From: Patescibacteria group bacterium
GTDB lineage: Bacteria; Patescibacteriota; Patescibacteriia; Patescibacteriales; WJLG01
Assembly (NCBI GenBank): GCA_028716485.1
Contig: JAQUPS010000002.1
Location: 43,013-107,012, forward strand
Reading direction: 5' to 3'
DNA: 64,000 nt
Below are positions 1-11,245 of this stretch, piece after piece. Under the pieces are notes generated by a model, which worked only from the letters and a program-made list of their open reading frames with translations, had not been told where the DNA came from and made no database searches. Position 1 is the first letter of the stretch; each line of letters opens with the position of its first letter. Position numbers and translations under genes: made by a program.

Positions 1-871
1 GCGGCCGCTTCGCCCGCTTAAATTCTTTAAAATCCGCCTTGACGAAAGCCTTAGTGATCTGCCGCGAACGATCCCGGCGAAAATTAAAACAAATCACCGC
101 GTCATTTTCCTTAATCAAAGCGACCGGCTCGCCGTTATCCGCGGTTAAAATCACCGGCTCCAGATACTCATCGAAAATTCCCCGCTCATATTGGCTGTCG
201 ATCGCTTCATGGGCGTTTTTTTCCGTGATGCCGATGCCGGCGGTCAGGGCTAAGAATGATTTCTCGATTCTATCCCAATTATTATTGCGATCCATGGTGA
301 AATACCGGCCGCTGATAGTGGCGATTTTGCCAAGGCCGATTTCTTTGATTTTATTTTCCAGCATCGTCAAAAATTTCTTGGCGCTTTGCGGGTGCGTGTC
401 GCGGCCGTCGGTAATGGCATGGATAAAAACCTCCTTAACCTTATTATTTTTAGCCATTTCCAAAAGCGCGAACAAATGTTCAATGTGGGAATGCACGGCG
501 CCATCGGAAAGCAAGCCAAGAACATGCAGATTGGAATTGTTTTTTTTCGCCCATTCAAAAGCGGCGAGCAGCGCCTCGTTCTTGAAAAAAGAACCATCGG
601 AAACGGCGGAAGAGATTGTCGGCAAAAATTGAAAAACAATCTGACCCGAACCGATAGTCTGGTGTCCAACTTCGGAATTGCCCCGCACGCCCCAAGGCAA
701 ACCGACCGCCATGCCGGAAGCCTGCAGATAGATTTTCGGGTAATGAGCGTTGAGCTCCTCAATTACCGGCAATTTTGCCTTCACGAATGGATTGCCCTTT
801 TCAATGTCCCACTCGCCCCAGCCATCAAGGATAACCAAAACGATCGGCTTCTTTTTTTTAACATTATCCAT
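1..871 (-). CDS. gpmI: 2,3-bisphosphoglycerate-independent phosphoglycerate mutase, N-terminal part (3' end runs off the window)
   Basis: Absent from the ORF track because it is open at the window edge. Reverse-strand translation from ATG at 869-871 gives MDNVKKKKPIVLVILDGWGEW...GNSEVGHQTIGSGQ...LLSDGAVHSH...AITDGRDT, which are typical iPGM motifs. The + strand ORFs 39..632 and 386..928 are antisense shadows. Confidence 0.85.
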   Translation of the reverse strand, partial: MDNVKKKKPIVLVILDGWGEWDIEKGNPFVKAKLPVIEELNAHYPKIYLQASGMAVGLPWGVRGNSEVGHQTIGSGQIVFQFLPTISSAVSDGSFFKNEALLAAFEWAKKNNSNLHVLGLLSDGAVHSHIEHLFALLEMAKNNKVKEVFIHAITDGRDTHPQSAKKFLTMLENKIKEIGLGKIATISGRYFTMDRNNNWDRIEKSFLALTAGIGITEKNAHEAIDSQYERGIFDEYLEPVILTADNGEPVALIKENDAVICFNFRRDRSRQITKAFVKADFKEFKRAKRP

Positions 872-1063
872 ACAAATATATTAATCAATCTTAGCAATCG
901 CTACATTATTAAATTGTTATATGGCTAAATTGTTAGGCGACAAAGATATCAACTTTCAGCAATGTAACAATTTAACAATTCAACAATTTATCTGTTTGTG
1001 CTATAATACTAACATTAACTTCCTTTATATTTTATCACATAATAATCTTATTTAAAAATCGTT

Positions 1064-2041
1064 ATGCAAAAAGTCCACATTCCCTATACCGTGCCCCGCT
1101 CCAAGCGCGCCGAATATTTAAAGAATTGGAAAATCGCCACCCGCGGCACGGGAAAACTGTTCATGTTCGCCTGCGACCAAAAAGTCGAACACTTGAATGA
1201 CGACTTCGTCGGACCGGGTATCAGTCCCGAAGTCGCGGATCCGGCGCATTATTTCGAGATTGCCAAAAAAGCGCAGATCGGCGTTTTAGGCTCCCAACTC
1301 GGCTTAATCGCCAAATACGCCGACCTCTGCCCGGGAGTTCCTCTGATCATCAAGGCTAATTCCAAAACCAACCTGATCAAGAAAACAGCGCGCGATCCGT
1401 TCAGCAACCGCTGGCTGGCGGTGGAAGATATCGTTAACTTCAAAAAAACCTCCGGCTTGAATATCGTCGGCATCGGCTACACGGTTTATATCGGCAGCGA
1501 ATTCGAATCCGAGTCTTTCGGCCAGGCAGCTCGTATCATCTATAAGGCTCATCAGGAGGGCATGCTGGCAGTCGTTTGGATGTACCCCCGCGGCAAGGCC
1601 GTTAAGAATGAAACAGATGCCCATTTATTGGCCGGCGGCGCCGGAGTCGCGGTATGTTTAGGCGCGGACTTCGTGAAAATCAATTATCCTTATGATAAAC
1701 CGACTGCCGAAACCGCCAAAAAATTCCGCGAAGTGGTGGCGGCGGCGGGACGGACGAAAGTCATTCCCATCGGCGGCGCGAAAATGCCGGAAAAGAAATT
1801 CCTCCAGCAGATCCATAATCAAATCCATCTTGCCGGCACCTCGGGCGTCGCCATCGGCCGCAATATTTTCCAGCGCCCGACCGACGAAGCCATCCGGATG
1901 GCCGATGCCATCGCCGCTGTCGCGCTCTATGATTATTCCGTGGAAAACGCTCATAAAATATTCCTTGGCAAAGCGAAGCTGAACGGCAAGCCCCGGCCAA
2001 GCAGCTCAACACTCAAATCGTTTTTGTCGTTATCGTTCTAA
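1064..2041 (+). CDS. class I fructose-bisphosphate aldolase (DhnA/FbaB, DeoC-LacD-type TIM barrel)
   Basis: 325-aa ORF. It has FACDQKVEH near the N-terminus and DFVKINYP, the Schiff-base Lys context of archaeal-type class I aldolases. A terminator follows. Confidence 0.75.
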   Translation: MQKVHIPYTVPRSKRAEYLKNWKIATRGTGKLFMFACDQKVEHLNDDFVGPGISPEVADPAHYFEIAKKAQIGVLGSQLGLIAKYADLCPGVPLIIKANSKTNLIKKTARDPFSNRWLAVEDIVNFKKTSGLNIVGIGYTVYIGSEFESESFGQAARIIYKAHQEGMLAVVWMYPRGKAVKNETDAHLLAGGAGVAVCLGADFVKINYPYDKPTAETAKKFREVVAAAGRTKVIPIGGAKMPEKKFLQQIHNQIHLAGTSGVAIGRNIFQRPTDEAIRMADAIAAVALYDYSVENAHKIFLGKAKLNGKPRPSSSTLKSFLSLSF

Positions 2042-2052
2042 AAATTATTTAT

Positions 2053-2085
2053 AAAGGCTTCTCTGCTTGGGGAAGCCTTTTTTTG
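2053..2085 (+). terminator. rho-independent terminator of the aldolase gene
   Basis: Stem aaaggcttc / gaagccttt followed by a T-run, 12 nt after the stop codon. Confidence 0.7.
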
Positions 2086-2270
2086 TTGAAAAAAATTTTA
2101 GGCGCAAGGCTTATGGCTCAAGGTCTAAAAGATCAGCAATCTTAGAAATCTTATTAAAAAATTTTCAAATATCTTTGCCACTTTTTTTAGAAAAAAGTGG
2201 CGCAAAAAATCGCGCGCCGGACAAATTTCCTATCACTCCGCTAAGAAACCTAGCAAAATTGCTATACTTG

Positions 2271-2310
2271 CCTCTCACCAATTTTGTTTGATAACAAAAT
2301 TGGTGAGAGG
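2271..2310. repeat. perfect inverted repeat (18-bp arms, 4-nt spacer)
   Basis: cctctcaccaattttgtt-tgat-aacaaaattggtgagagg. It is flanked by a second inverted pair, gcaaaattgc ... gcaattttgc. No T-run follows on either strand. Confidence 0.8.
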
Positions 2311-2581
2311 CTTCGGACAACGCAATTTTGCACGGTTTCCACGCTACGTGATTACGGAAATTTTCCAATGCGCGCTATAAGGAAAAAATAATCCAATTAG
2401 ACCTCCAAGTATCAAAAGAGCTGAAGCGCATTATCGCCTCAGCTCTTTAATAATTTATATGAATTTTTACTTTTTACTTTCGACTTTAATTTTCAGATGC
2501 GCCCCTTTTCGTAACGGGGCTCCGCCACTAAAATTCGCATGTCCCGCATTCGTAGCGCGGATCCGCCCCAGGCGGATAACG

Positions 2582-3769
2582 TTACTTCATCTTCTTCCGA
2601 ATAAATGCCGGGATGCCCAATTCCCCTTCTTCCGATTCTTCGTCCGGCAGTTCTTCCTGCGCCATTTTCACCGGGGAAATTTTGCTTTTCCGCGGCGCGT
2701 CGGCCGTTGAATCCGTCTTGTTCCCGAACCAACCGCGGCTTTTTTCTTCTTTCTCCGCGATAAAACTGTTCGGGGTGTAGGCGGGACGCAGCTGTTTGCC
2801 GGCAAGATCGTGCGCCTGGCCGTCAAAACCGGTGGCCACCACCGTAACTTTTATTTCATCTTTCAATTTATCGTCTATCACCGCGCCGAAAATAATCTTG
2901 GCTTCGGCATCGGCGGAAGCGGTAATAACTTTGGCGGCTTCGGAAACTTCGGTCATACCCAAACTGGGACCGCCGGTGATGGTAAAGACAATGCCGCGGG
3001 CCCCATCAATCGACATATCTAAAAGCGAAGAATTGATCGCCGCCTTGGCCGCTTCAATGGCGCGATTTTCTCCCGAAGCCTGGCCGATACCCATCAAAGC
3101 CGAGCCGGCATTCTGCATCACCGCCCGGACATCGGCGAAATCCACATTGATCAAGCCGGGAATGGTGATAATTTCGGCAATACCCTGCACGCCCTGGCGC
3201 AAGACATCGTCCGCCACCGAGAAAGCTTCCATCAGGGAAGTTTTTTTATCGATAATCTGCAATAATTTATCATTGTTGATAGTGATGATCGTATCAACCT
3301 TGTCGGCCAGTTCGGCAAAACCGCGTTCAGCAATCGCCTTTCTTTGTCCACCTTCAAAAGAAAAAGGCCGGGTGACGACCGCAACGGTAAGCGCGCCCAA
3401 ATCACGGGCGATTTCCGCCACCACCGGCGAAGCTCCCGTGCCGGTGCCGCCGCCCATGCCGCAAGTGATGAAAACCATATCCGAACCTTTCAAAATATCC
3501 CTGATTTCGTTCTGCGATTCTTCCGCCGCCTGGCGCCCCAATTCCGGATTCATGCCCGCGCCCAAACCCCTGGTAACCGATTTGCCGATATGCAATTTGT
3601 CGCCGGCTTTATTGTAATGCAAAGCCTGCACATCGGTATTAATGGCGACAAATTCCACGCCCCTGATTCCTTTGTCGATCATTCTTTGGATGGCGCTTCC
3701 GCCGCCGCCGCCGACCCCGACAACTTTTATCTTGGCGAATGTTTCGGCCAATGGTTTTATTTCGGCCAT
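2582..3769 (-). CDS. ftsZ: cell division GTPase FtsZ
   Basis: 395 aa with the tubulin signature [21 protein letters not shown] and NTDVQAL. The acidic/basic C-terminal tail ends in IPAFIRKK. Confidence 0.97.
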
Positions 3770-3985
3770 AAAATTGAAGATGATTTATGACGCCAAGCAT
3801 GGCGTATAAATTAATTGCACACTAAAAATATTATACTATAAGTTTATCCTATTGTAAAAAAAATATCAAGCCTGTTTAAGGCTTAATAGCTTACAAATTT
3901 TTATGCTTATTTTAGCCTATTTTAAGATGTATAAATTTAGCCGGAAAGCTGCTGAATAAAAAACTTGTACAATCGATAATTATTA

Positions 3986-5248
3986 TCAGGGGGCGAAGCG
4001 GGAAAAAATATCCCTGATTTTTTTATTGGCATCATCCAAAAAATTTCCCAAACCTCTCAAGGCGCCTTTGCCGGATCTTTTAGCCATGAAAGAATTTCCC
4101 CAGATGACCAATCCCAGAGCGGTTAAGTATTTGGAATCATTCACTTTATCAAAAATAATTTCCGCGTTGCGGCAAATGCCCACACTGGCCGGCAAACGTA
4201 ATTTATCTTTGGCAACCTCGATTAATCCCGCCAATTTAGCGCCGCCGCCCGCCAAAACAATGCCGGCCGGCAGCAATCCGGAACGGTCAATCTTTTTCAG
4301 CTGCTCGTCGATGCGCTCAAAAATTTCCTCGGCCCGAGCTTCGATTATTTCCGCGACATATTTTTTGGAGATGATTTTAATATCATCTTCCACCTCTTCT
4401 TCGCGGGCCAGTTCAGTGATATCAACCTCTTCCTTGCCGGAAAAATTCTTGGGCACGGCATTGCCATGCTCGATCTTCACCCGCTCGGCCAAATTGATCG
4501 GGCAGCGCAAACCGATGGCGATATCCGAAGTGATATGTTCCGAACCGATGGGGATAACTGCGGCATGAATCAACTTCCCTTCTTCATAAACCGCCAAAGT
4601 CGTGGTCGAAGCGCCAATACCGGCCACCGCCACGCCCAAATCTTTCTGCTTGGCGCTCAAAACCGCTTCGCCCAAAGCGAGCGAAGATAAAACCAGATCA
4701 TCGATATTCAAACCCGTGCGATAAATCGCCTTGGTCAGATTCTTTATCTGGCTGGTCATTCCCTGCACAATCAAAGCCTCGACTTCCAAACGAATCCCGC
4801 TCATCCCGATCGGGTCTTTGACGTCTTCCTGGTTATCCACAGTGAACTTTATCGGAATGACGTGCAAAATTTCGTAATTCGGCGGCATGCTCAAGGTCCG
4901 CGCCGCTTCAATCGCCCTTTCCACGTCTTCCTGGCTGATTTCGCCGTTATTCTTGCTCACCGCCACCACCCCCTTGCTTTTCTCGCACTTGATATACGGG
5001 TCATTAACGCTCACGTAAACATTGCCAATCGGCAGACCGATCAAACGCTCGGCCTTTTCCAAAAGCGAAGAAATCGAAGACGTGGTGTCATCGATGCTTT
5101 TGACCATTCCCTTGGTAATACCTTCGGATGGCGACGAAATCGCCCCGATTATCTGCAATCGGCCGTCATTTTGCTCTATTCTCTGCCCCACCACCAATCT
5201 AACCTCCGTCGAGCCGATATCCAAACCGACAATTGAATCATCTTTCAT
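3986..5248 (-). CDS. ftsA: cell division protein FtsA (actin-like ATPase)
   Basis: 420 aa with VGLDIGSTEVRLVVG phosphate-1 and GGGAKLAGL motifs. It lies immediately upstream of ftsZ on the same strand. Confidence 0.93.
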   Translation of the reverse strand: MKDDSIVGLDIGSTEVRLVVGQRIEQNDGRLQIIGAISSPSEGITKGMVKSIDDTTSSISSLLEKAERLIGLPIGNVYVSVNDPYIKCEKSKGVVAVSKNNGEISQEDVERAIEAARTLSMPPNYEILHVIPIKFTVDNQEDVKDPIGMSGIRLEVEALIVQGMTSQIKNLTKAIYRTGLNIDDLVLSSLALGEAVLSAKQKDLGVAVAGIGASTTTLAVYEEGKLIHAAVIPIGSEHITSDIAIGLRCPINLAERVKIEHGNAVPKNFSGKEEVDITELAREEEVEDDIKIISKKYVAEIIEARAEEIFERIDEQLKKIDRSGLLPAGIVLAGGGAKLAGLIEVAKDKLRLPASVGICRNAEIIFDKVNDSKYLTALGLVIWGNSFMAKRSGKGALRGLGNFLDDANKKIRDIFSRFAP

Positions 5249-5348: not shown

Positions 5349-5726
5349 TTATGATGTAATTCTTCTTTTTGCAAACAAAATTGCCTCCCCTAAAATAATT
5401 GCGATGAGAGAGGCACAGGCATCCACTATTAGGGGTCCGAAAGATTGTATTACTAAAAGTAATAATGATTCCAATCCTATAACTATGGCAAAAATCCAAT
5501 ATCTGAATTTACCGGCAAAAAGAATTATCCCCAAAGTTAAAATAAATGCCGAGCTTAAAAAGAATCCTTCAAAATATTCAGGATGCCCAAAACCAACATC
5601 CGCCCAGCTACCAGATCTTATATTAGTTCCTGTAATCATTTCATACAGAGTCGCGAAAGATGGGGTTAAAAAAAAAGTTAAAACAACAAATAAAAATAAA
5701 ATTAAAACATTTCCTTTTTTAAGCAT
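5349..5726 (-). CDS. small polytopic membrane protein
   Basis: 125 aa with about four hydrophobic spans. It is the third small membrane gene in the tandem module series downstream of the giant protein. Confidence 0.5.
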   Translation of the reverse strand: MLKKGNVLILFLFVVLTFFLTPSFATLYEMITGTNIRSGSWADVGFGHPEYFEGFFLSSAFILTLGIILFAGKFRYWIFAIVIGLESLLLLVIQSFGPLIVDACASLIAIILGEAILFAKRRITS

Positions 5727-5730
5727 AAAA

Positions 5731-5964
5731 TTATAAATTACTTAATAAATAATTAATATCTGCTTTTATCATATCATAACCGGCCTGGTTTATCCCATTC
5801 TTTTCTTTTATTTTATCCAGAGTTTTCAAAATAAAATCTAAATTTAGCACTATTGCTTTTTGCTTTGCCTCGCTATTTTTATCCAGTAATTTATTTAAAG
5901 CGTCAATAATTTTTTTCTTGGCTGTGGGATTTATTTTTTGGTTATTTTCAGCCTCTTTGACCAA
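5731..5964 (-). CDS. degenerate copy of the C-terminal helical module of the 1398-aa protein
   Basis: The 77-aa ORF ends in NQAGYDMIKADINYLLSNL. Compare WINQAGYNIIREDIKYLLNKI at the C-terminus of 7049..11245. Confidence 0.4.
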   Translation of the reverse strand: MVKEAENNQKINPTAKKKIIDALNKLLDKNSEAKQKAIVLNLDFILKTLDKIKEKNGINQAGYDMIKADINYLLSNL

Positions 5965-6047
5965 CTTTTTAATTACTTCTCTCCCTTTCGCGAGCAGTTC
6001 AAGCCAGAAACCAAAATAGCTGAATTAAAACAAATAACCCGGCTTTT

Positions 6048-6281
6048 TTAACCCAAAGGAATTAAATTGGTGTTACCATTATATAAATTTATTATAGCGA
6101 AAACTAATAAAATAAAATAAAATAAATGGCGTTTTTTATCGCCTAACTTAATCAGCAAAAATGGAAATATGAAAATAAAATAAACAATGTAGATAAAAAT
6201 ATCAAACAAATGAAAGACAAATAACAAAAGAAAAGGAATTAAAAATAACAAGAAAATTATAACTTCTTTGTACTTTTTCAT
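6048..6281 (-). CDS. small membrane protein (paralog of 6762..7043)
   Basis: 77 aa and very hydrophobic. It shares FIFIFP and the C-terminal TNLIPLG with FIFIFP ... TNFIPFG in the paralog. Confidence 0.5.
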   Translation of the reverse strand: MKKYKEVIIFLLFLIPFLLLFVFHLFDIFIYIVYFIFIFPFLLIKLGDKKRHLFYFILLVFAIINLYNGNTNLIPLG

Positions 6282-6285
6282 AAAT

Positions 6286-6765
6286 TTATATTTTACTTAA
6301 TAAATATTTTATATCCTCCCTAATTATATTATACCCTGCCTGATTAATCCATTTTACCCGCAAGAATACATCCAGCTTGGTTAAAACCAAGTTATATTTT
6401 AATTTGATTACGACTTGATTAATTTTGTTCAGTCTATATTCGAACCTGTCAAATGTTTTTCCGATTTTGGCATCGCACCAGGCCCGATTTTTATGCTTCA
6501 AACATTGCGCCATTGCCTTGTCCCGCATTATTTTTTCTTTATCGATTCTCTGGCCGTATTTTTCCTGGAAATTTTTAATATCAGTCAGATCGTTGATTAA
6601 GCTATTCTTTGCTTCAACCTTTGTGATCATTTTCTCGTCGTAGGCGCGACTGACATCAGCGATTGTTCCGTTAACGTCGGTGATAAAAGAAAAATTTACT
6701 ATTTGCTCGGCTTGATCGCCGGCTGAATAATTTTTACCGTGCTTAGCTATTGTATTTTTTATCAA
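6286..6765 (-). CDS. stand-alone copy of the about 145-aa C-terminal module of the giant secreted protein
   Basis: From GDQAEQ onward it is almost identical to the last about 145 aa of 7049..11245. Shared strings include AYDEKMITKVEAKNSLIN, QCLKHKN.AWCDAKIG and WINQAGYNIIREDIKYLL. Confidence 0.6.
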   Translation of the reverse strand: MIKNTIAKHGKNYSAGDQAEQIVNFSFITDVNGTIADVSRAYDEKMITKVEAKNSLINDLTDIKNFQEKYGQRIDKEKIMRDKAMAQCLKHKNRAWCDAKIGKTFDRFEYRLNKINQVVIKLKYNLVLTKLDVFLRVKWINQAGYNIIREDIKYLLSKI

Positions 6766-7043
6766 CCAAATGGTATAAAATTTGTTTTCTCGCTAAAAAA
6801 CATTGAAATAACATACATAAATAGGCTCAGATAAAAAAATATAAACAAAAATATATTTACCGTTTTTGAAGCTTTATTTTTTTTGTAAAAAAAGATAAAA
6901 ATAATCGGAAAAATAAAAATAAAGTAAAAGAAGTAAAAAGCTATGTCTATAAAAGTAGTAAACACCAAAAGCGAAACAGGCAATAAAAATAATATTGCCC
7001 AAAAGCTGAATATCTTAAATACCAATTTTTTTTTCTCTGTCAT
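6762..7043 (-). CDS. small membrane protein
   Basis: 93 aa and hydrophobic. Its stop overlaps the next gene's start. It is a paralog of 6048..6281. Confidence 0.55.
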   Translation of the reverse strand: MTEKKKLVFKIFSFWAILFLLPVSLLVFTTFIDIAFYFFYFIFIFPIIFIFFYKKNKASKTVNIFLFIFFYLSLFMYVISMFFSEKTNFIPFG

Positions 7044-7048
7044 ACTTT

Positions 7049-10000
7049 TTATATTTTATTTAATAAATATTTTATATCCTCCCTAATTATATTATACCCT
7101 GCCTGATTAATCCATTTTACCCGCAAGAATACATCCAGCTTGGTTAAAATCAGATTATATTTTAATTTGATTAGAGCTTGATTAACTTTATTTAGCTGAT
7201 ATTCGAATCTATCGAATATTTTTCCGATTTTGGCATCGCACCAAGCTTGATTTTTATGCTTCAAACATTGCGCCATGGCCTTGTCCCGCATTATTTTTTC
7301 TTTATCGATTCTCTGGCCGTATTTTTCCTGGAAATTTTTAATATCAGTCAGATTGTTGATTAAGCTATTCTTTGCTTCAACCTTTGTGATCATTTTCTCG
7401 TCGTAGGCGCGGTTAACATCGGCAATTGTACCGTCAATATCGGTAATTATGGAAAAATTAACTGTTTGCTCGGCTTGATCGCCGGCCAAATCTTGAATGG
7501 TGATTTTAACCTGATGCGAGCCAAGGCCTTGTAGGAATAGATCAATTAAATTTGTATTGACAAGATTGCCATCCAAATAAATTTTGGCGGTAGCTGTGTC
7601 AACGCCGGAAAAATTATCAACGGCAAAATACTCGACATCCAGCGTGTCGTTGCGCAATATTTCTTGCCCTTCCTGCGGCAATAAAACGCTGATGGTTGGT
7701 TTGGTTTTATCTATCGCGAAAGTTATTTCCTTATTTTCTTCGCGATTTCCAGCTCGATCAGTCGAGGAATATAAAATAGTCGCAGTTCCATCTTGGGAAA
7801 CCGTAAATTCTCCCGTATAATTAGTCCAAATTTTTCCGCCATCCAAACTGTATTCCGTTTTCAGAACGCCGGAATTATCATCGGCGGCCGCGAGATTAAT
7901 TTTCACAGCAGAAACGTAATAATCATTGTTCCCTTTTATCCCGACAATATTTATAGTTGTGGCTGGCTTAACCAGATCGTTCATCTCATTGCCAGCCAAA
8001 ACGGCATCGGGGGTTTTATTTTCCTCAAAAACTCCATCGCCATTTTCATCAACTTTTACAACTTGACTTTCTTGACCGGGAATTAAATTAATTTGTGTTC
8101 TGGTTAGATCGGATTGGAGCGGAATGCTGTTAAAATATTCCGTATTGGTGTATTGGTTGTTTTCTACTGTTTTTATCGCCACTTCCAGAGTGCCTGTTCC
8201 GACCGCCTCGCCGGTTATCCGATAATTACCGCTCGCGGGCAAAAAAGCAAATTTATTGCCGTCAACAATATCATACTGAACGCCGGGGACATTGTTTTCG
8301 ATATCGCCATTGGCGGTCGGCCCGGTATGATTGCCTTGATCGTCATAAATATTCATCTCCACCGGGCAATGATATTCAATGACTTTTCCGGAAATTCCGC
8401 AAATACTGTCATCGGCCTTGAAATTTTGGGATTGCGCAAACGGATATTCCGCTTCCTGATTATTTAAAACCAAATAAACAAAATCTTTCACTTCCTGCGC
8501 GCCGGGAATCTGCGAATGGTCTTTTCCAGAAAGATAATATTTTTTATCGCCAAAATAATCAGCGCTCTTCAAGGGTACTGTGCCGTCGCCGTCAACATAT
8601 TCTAAGCCGTATTCATCCCATAAAAATGCTTTTTTGCCTAAATTATCAATTTTGCCGATAGTAGGTGTGCCGCACCCGGAAATGGTATAGGAATTATTGA
8701 TTTTCACATCATCTATCTGTGAATGTAAAAGCGAATTTTTATTTATGAAATATGATGATATTCCATTATTACTGGCAATAAGATACGAGAGCGAATCATT
8801 ATAATTTAATTCTCCTTGCAAACTCGTGCCGCCGATATTTGAATTATTGTATAAATAATGTCCATAGCCGTCGCCAATGAGATTAAAATATTCTGGGCTA
8901 GGCAGCAGTTGATAGATCGAGGGCATTTGCAGGGAAATTTCTTGAATTTTACTTGGACTTAAAAAATAATAGCCTTTTAAATTTATGCCCAAATTATCCC
9001 CATATTCCAAAATCTTTGCCGCTTTTGGCGCGCCCAAATTCGGTGTGGCAATGTCGATAAATTTATCAATAGAATCCTGCCCGAATTTGGCGGCATAATC
9101 TTTTACCACCAGTCCGCCCATACTGTGAGCGACAATATCAACTTTATCCGAATTTGTTTTTTGTTTAACCTCTTCTATTAAGCATTTTAAGGTTGTGGTT
9201 GATTCGCAGGACGTATTATCACCAGCAACTTGATCTAAATCCAAACGCCAATCATATGGAAAAACAAATAAATCTTTATTTTCTTCATAACCGTTGGCTT
9301 TTAGATAATTAATCAGTCCGCCATAAAAATCCATATAGAAACCTAATCCCCCAACCTTTCTTATGACGTCGGTAGTAAAAATATTTTTTATGGAATTACC
9401 ACTCCCATCCATTTTTAATTCATTCAACTGCTCATCAACGGGGTCGGCGATATAAGTTGCCGGATCCGGCCAAATTTCTTTATTAAGCAATAATTCCTTT
9501 TCATCAAGAGAGCTCCCCAAAATCCCCGGCACGATGATTACCGGATTATGCGCGAGCGGTGGCGGGCCATAGGTGATATAAAGGTCGGGGTTTTTTACTC
9601 CCAGGTAACCCTGCTTGTTATAAGGTTCGGTCTGATCATAATCATATTGATCGCGCATGACCAAAGAAAAATTATTTCCGATCTGGGAATTAAGCCAGGA
9701 AACTCCGGAAGAATTAAAATTGAAAGTAAGGGTATTGGAACCGCCGTAAAAATAATAACTTACGTCTGAAAGGGAGGAGGCGGAGCCTTGATAACCGCCG
9801 AAAGAATCATCGGCATTGGATTGAGGAAATAATTCGCGATCAATATGAGGTGGATTGTCATTATCATCATTAGTTTCAGCCCGCAAATAAGCGCTTTTGA
9901 CAACATTGCCGGCAGGAATCAAATCGGCCAGATTGAACAAATAAGACGGACGAAATATTCTTCCCCCGCTCCCCTGATATTGCGAGTTCGAGAAACAATT

Positions 10001-11245
10001 ACCTGCTTCTCCGTTAAACGCGCAATCATCGGTATCGGCTTTCCAGTAGCAATAATTATCATTTCCAGTATGGTTTAATTGCGTAGCGCGCGGCCAAGTG
10101 ACTGACTTATACCAGCTGCAGGAAAGAAAAAAATTCAAATTTTTCATTTCATCCGGGCGGATTAGGATTTGATGATCGGCTGAAGCCAGAATCACAAAAT
10201 CAGTATTTATGGCGGGGTCGCTTATTGTTTTCCACACCGAGGCGTTGCCTTGCGAATCCATTGCCCTGGCCTGCCAGTGATACCGGCCGGGTAAGAGATT
10301 TGATACATTAACCGAAGCCATCTGGCCGGAAGCGAAGAAACTGCTGAATGCGGTGGGCGTGCCGGTGAACGAATTTTCTGACGGCTGAACTTCAACCTGC
10401 AACTGCGCTTGATCGCCCGTCGGGCTTGTTGGCATCGCCCGAAATACGACGGCGTTGTCCGTAATATTAACCCCCTCATCTATGATTGTTGCCCCGCCTG
10501 ATTTGAACTGCCCGAGATTTGAAAGAGCTGGAATCGGATTTGGGGCGCTGTCATCAAAAAATTTCAGATCGTCAAAATACAATGATACGGCAGACGCTTC
10601 CAGATAGACGCTATTGAATGGTTGCGTTGCCGGATTTAAGCCGGAAAGATGCCATCCTGAATCAAATGAACCTCCAATGTCGCCATTAATAACAATACGG
10701 CACGTATTATCGGTTTGATTCCAGTATAAATTCATAACATACCATTCATCTTGATTATAATGGCCCAAATCGAGCGAAGGAGCGCCAGCAGGATTGCTTG
10801 AATCAAAAAAGAAATTCAAGTGGTGCTTTGCGGGCCAATCCGAAACCAAAAAACATCCCAAAGGACCAGGGTGGCCAACAGACTCCTGATACATTATGCC
10901 AATCTCTTGATAAGGATTAGAACCGGAACCAATTTTAAAAGTAATCTCAAAATGCCCTAAATCAGGAATACCGCCCCAAGGCGACGAAAACATATAATAC
11001 ATCGCGTACATTGAATCATTGGGCGGAACAATATCGCCACCATAAGGAGGGCTGATGTATTCCGATCCTTGCGTATGCGAATAAATAGTGCCACGCCAAT
11101 AATTCGTCAAAAAATTCAACGAGGAATGTCCCGAATAGAAATCAAAATTTTCATCAACTGGCGTTGATGCTAAAACAGGTTTTTGAGAAGTGAAAAAGGC
11201 GACGGAGAGAGAAAGAAAAAATAGAATAAAAAATTTATTTTTCAT
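7049..11245 (-). CDS. giant secreted multidomain protein with an LCAT/PGAP1-like alpha/beta-hydrolase (lipase/acyltransferase) core and Ig-like repeats
   Basis: 1398 aa with N-terminal signal peptide MKNKFFILFFLSLSVAFF. The core carries VIIVPGILGSSL, FPYDWRLD and a VDIVAHSMGGLVV nucleophile elbow (coding about 9115-9140). Later segments such as YSLDGGKIWTNYTGEF ... STDRAGNRE resemble bacterial Ig/OmpL47-type domains. Confidence 0.8.
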   Translation of the reverse strand: MKNKFFILFFLSLSVAFFTSQKPVLASTPVDENFDFYSGHSSLNFLTNYWRGTIYSHTQGSEYISPPYGGDIVPPNDSMYAMYYMFSSPWGGIPDLGHFEITFKIGSGSNPYQEIGIMYQESVGHPGPLGCFLVSDWPAKHHLNFFFDSSNPAGAPSLDLGHYNQDEWYVMNLYWNQTDNTCRIVINGDIGGSFDSGWHLSGLNPATQPFNSVYLEASAVSLYFDDLKFFDDSAPNPIPALSNLGQFKSGGATIIDEGVNITDNAVVFRAMPTSPTGDQAQLQVEVQPSENSFTGTPTAFSSFFASGQMASVNVSNLLPGRYHWQARAMDSQGNASVWKTISDPAINTDFVILASADHQILIRPDEMKNLNFFLSCSWYKSVTWPRATQLNHTGNDNYCYWKADTDDCAFNGEAGNCFSNSQYQGSGGRIFRPSYLFNLADLIPAGNVVKSAYLRAETNDDNDNPPHIDRELFPQSNADDSFGGYQGSASSLSDVSYYFYGGSNTLTFNFNSSGVSWLNSQIGNNFSLVMRDQYDYDQTEPYNKQGYLGVKNPDLYITYGPPPLAHNPVIIVPGILGSSLDEKELLLNKEIWPDPATYIADPVDEQLNELKMDGSGNSIKNIFTTDVIRKVGGLGFYMDFYGGLINYLKANGYEENKDLFVFPYDWRLDLDQVAGDNTSCESTTTLKCLIEEVKQKTNSDKVDIVAHSMGGLVVKDYAAKFGQDSIDKFIDIATPNLGAPKAAKILEYGDNLGINLKGYYFLSPSKIQEISLQMPSIYQLLPSPEYFNLIGDGYGHYLYNNSNIGGTSLQGELNYNDSLSYLIASNNGISSYFINKNSLLHSQIDDVKINNSYTISGCGTPTIGKIDNLGKKAFLWDEYGLEYVDGDGTVPLKSADYFGDKKYYLSGKDHSQIPGAQEVKDFVYLVLNNQEAEYPFAQSQNFKADDSICGISGKVIEYHCPVEMNIYDDQGNHTGPTANGDIENNVPGVQYDIVDGNKFAFLPASGNYRITGEAVGTGTLEVAIKTVENNQYTNTEYFNSIPLQSDLTRTQINLIPGQESQVVKVDENGDGVFEENKTPDAVLAGNEMNDLVKPATTINIVGIKGNNDYYVSAVKINLAAADDNSGVLKTEYSLDGGKIWTNYTGEFTVSQDGTATILYSSTDRAGNREENKEITFAIDKTKPTISVLLPQEGQEILRNDTLDVEYFAVDNFSGVDTATAKIYLDGNLVNTNLIDLFLQGLGSHQVKITIQDLAGDQAEQTVNFSIITDIDGTIADVNRAYDEKMITKVEAKNSLINNLTDIKNFQEKYGQRIDKEKIMRDKAMAQCLKHKNQAWCDAKIGKIFDRFEYQLNKVNQALIKLKYNLILTKLDVFLRVKWINQAGYNIIREDIKYLLNKI

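Follow-up and report, generated by a model that had tools for sequence, protein, structure and literature searches.

What does a bacterium gain from keeping further copies of the tail of a giant secreted protein directly behind its gene, each accompanied by a gene for a tiny membrane protein? The question is raised by a 64,000-nucleotide (nt) stretch, here called the window, of a Patescibacteria metagenome-assembled genome, at the locus tagged PHO56_00780 to PHO56_00800. There is good support for reading this locus as the 3' end of an operon that encodes, in a Patescibacteria bacterium, a giant lipase of the LCAT type secreted by Sec, and likewise for dividing the array into three cassettes: the expressed end of the giant gene, which encodes a helical module of subtype A, followed by the small membrane-protein gene tm93; an old stand-alone module of subtype A (mod159) followed by the older paralogue tm77; and a truncated module of subtype B (mod77) followed by tm125. 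Here, we report that helical modules of this kind and genes for small membrane proteins (T) form a couple that, judged from the sequences compared, is real, conserved and previously undescribed, and we weigh what this couple may be for.

The earlier note on this DNA had described each module copy as being followed by a small hydrophobic membrane protein and had taken the pairing to be fixed; in the window and in its relatives the pairing is borne out as a conserved association. Each module stop codon in the window is followed 4–5 nt on by the ATG of a hydrophobic open reading frame (ORF), with three predicted transmembrane (TM) segments encoded by tm93 and tm77 and four by tm125. A census of the window and 30 related loci comprised 31 module ends, and at 28 of these an ORF of 77–130 amino acids (aa) with 3–4 TM begins 2–14 nt downstream; once near-identical contigs were removed, such an ORF was found at about 22–23 of 25 module ends. 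The module ends that have none are those of L010, into which a putative transposase gene has inserted, of L024, where the contig ends, and of L017. The 321-aa ORF in L010 (1394–2359), by its appearance an insertion sequence transposase, lies directly after the module at the usual position of T, and the giant ORF of that locus extends 16 codons beyond its usual end. A reciprocal search from the T side agrees with the census: the profile of the T1 family retrieved few new members, and the two whose DNA could be retrieved both lie immediately behind the end of a module.

The T proteins were grouped into families T1 (tm93, tm77 and 15 others), T2 and T3, the last with four TM. Both tm93 (E 2.4e-17) and tm77 (E 1.2e-3) match the hidden Markov model (HMM) of T1. 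An orthologue of tm93 that is 76% identical (P0008) lies directly after the giant gene in L001–L003, and tm77 is the orthologue of the T79 genes of L001 and L005. No similarity of tm125 to tm93 or tm77 was detectable by BLAST; an HMM of L018_127 and L023_130, two 4-TM proteins encoded behind subtype-B modules, matches it (E 6.7e-6), and a fragment 64% identical to tm125 lies upstream of the orphan (stand-alone) module in L016. Subtype B is paired with T3 (window, L018, L023) and subtype A with T1 or T2. By the positive-inside rule, T1 proteins probably keep their N-terminus and a lysine-rich loop on the cytoplasmic side and expose no more than a short loop and the tail, while T3 proteins are predicted to have an outer loop of about 30 residues. 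PADLOC and NCBIfam returned no match for any of the small ORFs. A holin role of T was rejected on the grounds that the giant protein has a Sec signal and that T1 has no charged C-terminal tail and no family match. One 123-aa protein of the representative library (P0082) has a module fragment in frame with the C-terminal half of a T1-like protein and is either a deletion fusion or a chimeric contig. In the window a frameshift fusion of tm93 and mod159 at their TTGA overlap was considered and dropped, with no slippery site and no supporting evidence found.

The ORF listing verified the six minus-strand ORFs at the coordinates given by the earlier note. They are read in the order giant ORF, tm93, mod159, tm77, mod77 and tm125 (Table 1), with ftsA and ftsZ next.

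Table 1. Coordinates of the array in the window
Feature	Position	Strand	Description
Giant gene	7049..11245	-	1398 aa; PHO56_00800
C-terminal subtype-A module of the giant protein	7052..7486	-	aa 1254-1398
tm93	6762..7043	-	93 aa; 3 TM; family T1; start 5 nt past the giant stop
mod159	6286..6765	-	Stand-alone subtype-A module; PHO56_00795; homologous part 6289-6723; TTG start overlapping the tm93 stop (TTGA)
tm77	6048..6281	-	77 aa; 3 TM; family T1; start 4 nt past the mod159 stop
mod77	5731..6003	-	5'-truncated subtype-B module; ORF from TTG 5731-5964 (77 aa); in-frame homology reaches 6003, beyond this TTG start
tm125	5349..5726	-	125 aa; 4 TM; family T3; start 4 nt past the mod77 stop

The giant protein begins, in translation, with a Sec-type signal peptide. 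It harbours an LCAT-type alpha/beta-hydrolase (lipase) domain at aa 641–783 (Pfam PF02450, E 7.7e-24; 85.1 bits against a gathering score of 21) with HSMGG as the GxSxG nucleophile motif, an OmpL47-type barrel at aa 1110–1178 (NCBIfam barrel_OmpL47, 1.4e-23) and an immunoglobulin (Ig) domain of the Pfam Big_7 type from aa 1183. Its C-terminal 145 aa gave no significant family match in Pfam or NCBIfam, and on inspection of the translation neither a C-terminal hydrophobic anchor nor an N-terminal lipobox cysteine was seen. All eight diverse long members of the module family that were tested (8/8) contain the LCAT domain, preceded by N-terminal lectin or Kelch parts that vary, and the module is therefore specific to this enzyme family. 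A literature search for Patescibacteria lipases returned nothing relevant. In the public annotation the ORFs of the array are hypothetical proteins, except tm93, which is unannotated; it was left out although its four small neighbours and the giant gene were annotated. The array has a GC content of 20–36%, against 41% for the whole window, largely because the encoded proteins are rich in Phe, Ile, Leu, Lys and Asn. Promoter and terminator scans of the locus gave chance-level results. Only 7 of the 42 long ORFs of the whole window have an upstream Shine-Dalgarno-like motif, and analysis of this motif was therefore uninformative; most genes in the window start without one.

The enzymes of this family close with a basic domain of about 130 aa that comprises four helices. 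AlphaFold2 modelled the module as four helices with a predicted local distance difference test (pLDDT) score of 84.7. In a model of Ig domain plus module (Ig part below pLDDT 50) the first 16 or so residues of the repeated segment precede helix 1 and, by the Pfam Big_7 coordinates, probably form the final strand of the Ig domain. Hydrophilic and basic in character (isoelectric point, pI, 9.2–9.6; grand average of hydropathy, GRAVY, -0.48), the bundle showed neither a membrane-spanning segment nor a hydrophobic hairpin, the maximum Kyte-Doolittle hydropathy over 19 residues being 0.94. The C-terminal helix of the module is conserved, with the pattern INQxGYxIIxxDIxYL. A profile search of 1.84 billion representative proteins gave a family of 90 members at E <= 1e-3; members of about 750–1470 aa carry the module at the extreme C-terminus, and the remainder are short ORFs or fragments. 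The family divides into two subtypes, A and B, whose homology extends over the full length of the module (hhalign probability 99.7%, E 9e-27). Subtype A has two conserved cysteines (QCLKHKNQAWC), and subtype B, mod77 included, has none; the description of the module as a helical domain with two cysteines is therefore right for subtype A only. The module was at least as conserved as the body in eight comparisons of giants, with identities for module and rest of 68% and 44% in L006, 63% and 45% in L012, and 83–86% and 20–70% in P0009. Giants of the A type and the B type are divergent along their full length, at 20–40% identity.

Searches with the module gave one weak family link in subtype B and no significant match in the PDB. 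Pfam FIMAH (PF22888) matches 7 of 10 subtype-B modules across the whole profile, the best with 26.9 bits and as the only one above the gathering score of 24.8, while no match was found for the subtype-A copies. For mod77 the match covers profile positions 8–80 of 81 (E 0.007). The FIMAH-like part is the last 78 or so residues of the module, which mod77 retains, and this part appears to be weakly and distantly related to FIMAH. Unlike FIMAH, the module has an additional N-terminal helical hairpin. A literature search for FIMAH or PF22888 found no relevant paper on its function or on a link to toxins. Foldseek returned only generic four-helix bundles from the PDB (best E 0.06). Two hits of the PDB sequence-profile search, CdvA for subtype A (E 0.07) and Skp/OmpH for subtype B (E 0.001), were judged to be matches of coiled-coil composition.

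A k-mer dot-plot of the array showed one dominant diagonal, at an offset of 763. The earlier note had described the first two units as a recent duplication of about 763 bp, but the near-identical repeat is about 440 bp and comprises the module only (7486–7049 against 6723–6286). The last 145 aa of the giant protein and the homologous part of mod159 differ by 14 residues and, at the DNA level, at 37 of 435 nt, which gives identities of 90% (aa) and 91.5% (nt); in mod159, the C-terminus does recur as claimed. The 77-aa ORF had been regarded as a degenerate third copy, which it is not. Within the window it shares 40–44% identity with the last 43–60 aa of the module (tblastn E about 1e-5 to 1e-6), whereas over 90 in-frame codons (window 5734–6003) mod77 is 62% identical to the C-terminal modules of the giants in L023 and L018; it is a truncated paralogue of subtype B that lacks the first third of the module domain. 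The proteins tm93 and tm77 are 38% identical, tm77 shares an 18-nt indel with T79 of L001 in a four-way DNA alignment, and in L001 T93 and T79 are direct neighbours without an intervening module. It follows that tm93 and tm77 are paralogues of greater age that did not arise in the same event.

The two subtype-A module copies form a mosaic in which nt 1–75 and 239–337 are about 20% diverged and nt 76–238 and 338–435 about 1% diverged. This clustering of differences is significant in a permutation test on the two longest difference-free runs (P about 1e-4), likewise for third codon positions alone, and marks gene conversion between the end of the giant gene and mod159. In the unconverted tracts the synonymous divergence (dS) is about 1.15 and the non-synonymous divergence (dN) 0.09, with a dN/dS of 0.08. 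The duplication is old, not recent, and its copies have been partly homogenised by gene conversion. The comparison as a whole yielded 22 synonymous and 15 non-synonymous differences (dN/dS 0.135). With four outgroups, 13 synonymous and 10 non-synonymous changes were placed on the mod159 branch (dN/dS about 0.18; P 7.5e-5 against neutrality), and mod159 changes at about twice the rate of the giant's copy. Thus mod159 is under purifying selection. The orphans of L016 and L018 are as conserved relative to one another as full-length modules are, with saturated synonymous sites, and the retained part of the orphans inspected has no frameshift or internal stop. Given this selection, the stand-alone copies are not free-running pseudogenes; either they are translated, or recombination with the expressed gene regularly brings them under selection. 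At its 5' end mod159 has a decayed junction, not a clean one.

Cassettes of a stand-alone module and a membrane-protein gene were found in at least seven other contigs, and the survey of relatives showed the number of cassettes to vary among related loci. In BamEA0Bt a 1340-aa giant with a B-type end is followed by ORFs of 120 aa, a 152-aa A-type orphan (P0002) and 59 aa; the order is the same in uKYyLjvr, L016 and L018, with orphans shortened to 102, 96 and 70 aa. L023 harbours a tandem repeat of a subtype-B module with T130 (801 nt, 97.5% identity). L030 reads module end, T107, a 142-aa orphan and a T-like ORF; the orphan (521–993) has 48% GC and the flanking membrane-protein genes 19–28%, a base composition that suggests a foreign origin of this cassette. 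The orphans mod159, P0002, the second copy in L023 and the one in L030 have a common start at the last Ig strand. L001 (giant-T93-T79) and L005 (giant-T79) look like deletion variants. Together with the conversion mosaic and the repeat in L023, they bear out the earlier suggestion of a recombinationally active locus. A third subtype-A copy of the same genome (P0003, PHO56_02485), of 115 aa and with 89% identity to the end of the giant, was located on another contig, of 66 kb.

L024 was also counted among the cassette arrays. It contains a relative of the giant gene (2–4298) that lacks the helical module, and behind this still come, in order, a 3-TM gene, a 19-aa remnant of the module end and another membrane ORF. 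The giant gene is frameshifted in L012 (463–4143), its near-identical counterpart in L013 being intact, and has an in-frame stop in L026 (2–2857); these disruptions are either sequencing errors or inactivated genes. Two candidate stand-alone modules were discarded. P0004 is the end of a giant gene at a contig edge, and P0007, of 104 aa (L004, 631–730), is an artefact of a run of N in the scaffold that separates it from the giant gene; this 104-aa module is named a linocin/CFP29 family protein by JGI.

What, then, could such a couple do? The account we favour, tentatively and with somewhat less than even confidence, is that adjacent or overlapping cistrons supply module and membrane protein together and that the two assemble into a complex, in which the membrane protein would be a membrane-embedded docking partner that holds an otherwise anchorless secreted lipase at the cell's own membrane. 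Direct repeats of the module would be the recombination substrates by which cassettes are duplicated, converted or deleted, which would account for the differing cassette numbers among relatives. A lipase gene followed by a gene for a membrane-bound helper is also found in the operons of lipase-specific foldases (Lif), in which a single TM and a large helical domain are united in one protein; here, unlike in Lif, it is the lipase that carries the helical domain, and the membrane protein is a product of its own. Lif itself was rejected as an identity of either partner, with no Pfam or NCBIfam match for module or T, and with 3–4 TM and no soluble domain in T.

A number of observations weigh against docking. 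The stand-alone modules have no signal peptide in translation, yet are under purifying selection; if translated, they would therefore be cytoplasmic and unable to dock on the outer face of the membrane, where T1 is predicted to expose almost nothing. Nearly identical A modules precede different T families (L014 against L015, L020 against L021), and T1 evolves much faster than the module (53% identity between T77 and L005_79, with 81% for the module). Between two and four divergent T paralogues follow a single giant gene in L008, L015, L020 and L021, arrays that would be more typical of immunity genes than of an anchor. The FIMAH link, finally, is weak for the copies in the window, at 17.4 bits for mod77 and so below the gathering score, and with no match for subtype A.

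Some of these observations point to the main rival, which we regard as unlikely but not negligible: an immunity-like pair, in which the giant protein, as a lipase with a basic amphipathic helical tail, would be a weapon against the membranes of host or competitor, T would protect the membrane of the producer, and additional T genes and orphan cassettes would be a reservoir of immunity and toxin variants. The tight coupling of the partner gene downstream of the module, the strings of 2–4 divergent T paralogues, the rapid evolution of T and the basic pI of the module are all as such a role would have it, as are 5'-truncated orphan modules with T in at least eight loci, one of them (L030) of foreign base composition. 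In size and topology (about 60–130 aa, 3–4 TM) T resembles the immunity proteins of pore-forming colicins and of TsaI-type arrays. Yet the module is not polymorphic, being no less conserved than the remainder of the protein, it is without a hydrophobic hairpin, and nearly identical modules are found beside different T families. Searches of Pfam, NCBIfam, PADLOC and the PDB found no match of the module to a toxin family, and its sole family link is to FIMAH, for which the literature search gave neither function nor toxin link.

The comparison with known systems of this kind is instructive. Pore-forming colicins have a C-terminal helical bundle and an adjacent immunity partner of about 100–180 aa with 3 or 4 TM, and their pore domain buries a hydrophobic hairpin in a bundle of about 10 helices. 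The present locus is alike in having a helical bundle at the extreme C-terminus of a large secreted protein and an adjacent 3- or 4-TM partner; it differs in that the module has four helices, no hydrophobic hairpin and no significant sequence or fold match in the PDB, and in that the partner is encoded on the same strand and translationally coupled. A colicin-type pore domain was rejected on account of the four helices and the low hydropathy, both maximal and average.

There is also a likeness, at the genetic level, to the orphan cassettes of CdiA and Rhs (PMC3150448, PMC3967940): a large secreted protein has a small partner gene immediately after it, 5'-truncated copies of its C-terminus lie downstream, each with its own partner and starting near a fixed domain boundary, and main gene and orphans recombine. 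Unlike in CdiA and Rhs, the C-terminal domain here is conserved, not hypervariable, and bears no toxin signature, the protein is exported through an N-terminal Sec signal and not by two-partner or type VI secretion, and the partners are polytopic membrane proteins. Among the traits of polymorphic toxins, a downstream partner gene and truncated orphan cassettes were found and a hypervariable C-terminus was not; with a module at least as conserved as the body, the locus therefore fails the key test of such toxins. In Staphylococcus aureus, according to PMC9484751, strings of non-identical genes for small or medium-sized polytopic membrane proteins (TsaI) lie downstream of the secreted protein TspA and evolve by recombination between tandem paralogues, much as here. 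Unlike TspA/TsaI, the locus lacks any LXG or type VII secretion (T7SS) context, no membrane-inserting segment is predicted in its module, and at about 60–130 aa its T proteins are far smaller; in Pfam the giant protein had no match to LXG, the domain by which T7SS toxins are judged, and it has a Sec-type signal peptide instead. The locus is genetically like a cassette array, and it is not a member of the CdiA/Rhs or T7SS families.

A further possibility, improbable in our view, is compatible with either function, docking or immunity. The orphans would be unexpressed reservoirs that are periodically recombined into the end of the giant gene, so that the tail and, by loss of the DNA in between, the membrane partner change together. 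The orphans lack signal peptides and have either TTG starts only or no start, and several begin at the last Ig strand (window, P0002, L023 and L030). The giant's end and mod159 have demonstrably undergone gene conversion with each other, and purifying selection would be expected if cassettes were repeatedly exposed in an expressed gene. The layout of L005 is the expected product of recombination between two module repeats, and both orders exist, with an A giant and a B orphan in the window and a B giant and an A orphan in BamEA0Bt, L016 and L018. There is precedent in the activation of orphan Rhs or CdiA C-termini, as given in the same two sources (PMC3150448, PMC3967940). The swapping of C-terminal cassettes, which the earlier note had also envisaged, finds no footing, however, in the giants themselves: those of the A and B types differ over their whole length, so that no swapped tail is seen on a shared body, and the module is no more variable than the body. 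A switch between the A copies of the window would change little, as they differ by 14 residues only, and the truncated orphans mod77, L016 and L018 lack the homology further upstream that a clean exchange with a gene of the opposite subtype would need.

More speculative still, and quite improbable, is a lipid-scavenging device made up of the giant enzyme with its four-helix tail, basic and amphipathic, and of the small membrane protein. The tail would be a lipid-binding bundle of the apolipoprotein type and the membrane protein an acceptor, so that lipids stripped from the host cell could be fed into the Patescibacteria's own membrane, and the stand-alone cassettes would be variant or spare parts maintained by gene conversion. 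To our knowledge, Patescibacteria cannot make their own lipids.

We give little credence to the extra modules being decaying leftovers, pseudogene fragments that survive only by lying just upstream of useful T genes. Orphans are indeed 5'-truncated to varied lengths (152, 102, 96, 90 and 70 aa), mod159 has a degenerate 5' junction and changes about twice as fast as the giant's copy, and mod77 is without the first third of the domain. Such decay is contradicted, however, by a dN/dS of 0.08–0.18 with near-saturated dS, by the intact reading frame in the retained part of the inspected orphans and by a conservation from orphan to orphan equal to that between full-length modules. The Logan assemblies of runs SRR22315506 and SRR22315509 (L028, L029) are 100% identical to window 6038–3497; both end exactly at 6038, the boundary of the second and third cassettes, and this break may be an assembly-graph branch that arises from population variation in cassette content. 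Least credible is that a metagenome assembler joined two strain variants of the giant's end in tandem, for although the window is from a metagenome-assembled genome and both Logan assemblies break inside the array, the copies differ, their flanks are not the same and their junction is decayed and non-identical, tm93 and tm77 are separate genes with adjacent orthologues in L001, the two independent assemblies reproduce their part of the window exactly, and comparable arrays exist in independent, unrelated assemblies.

Patescibacteria are, as far as we know, mostly known from metagenomes, and little is known of the means by which they attach to host cells and exploit them. What is new here is a conserved and so far unannotated unit of three parts, namely a giant LCAT-type lipase, a helical tail specific to its family and a coupled small membrane protein, which has the architecture of a toxin/immunity cassette array without the hallmark variability. 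Should tail and membrane protein indeed assemble into a complex, a bacterium that apparently lacks the usual anchors would have a new means of tethering or controlling a surface enzyme; if T is an immunity protein, the locus would represent a new antagonism system in Patescibacteria. Either outcome provides concrete proteins to test.

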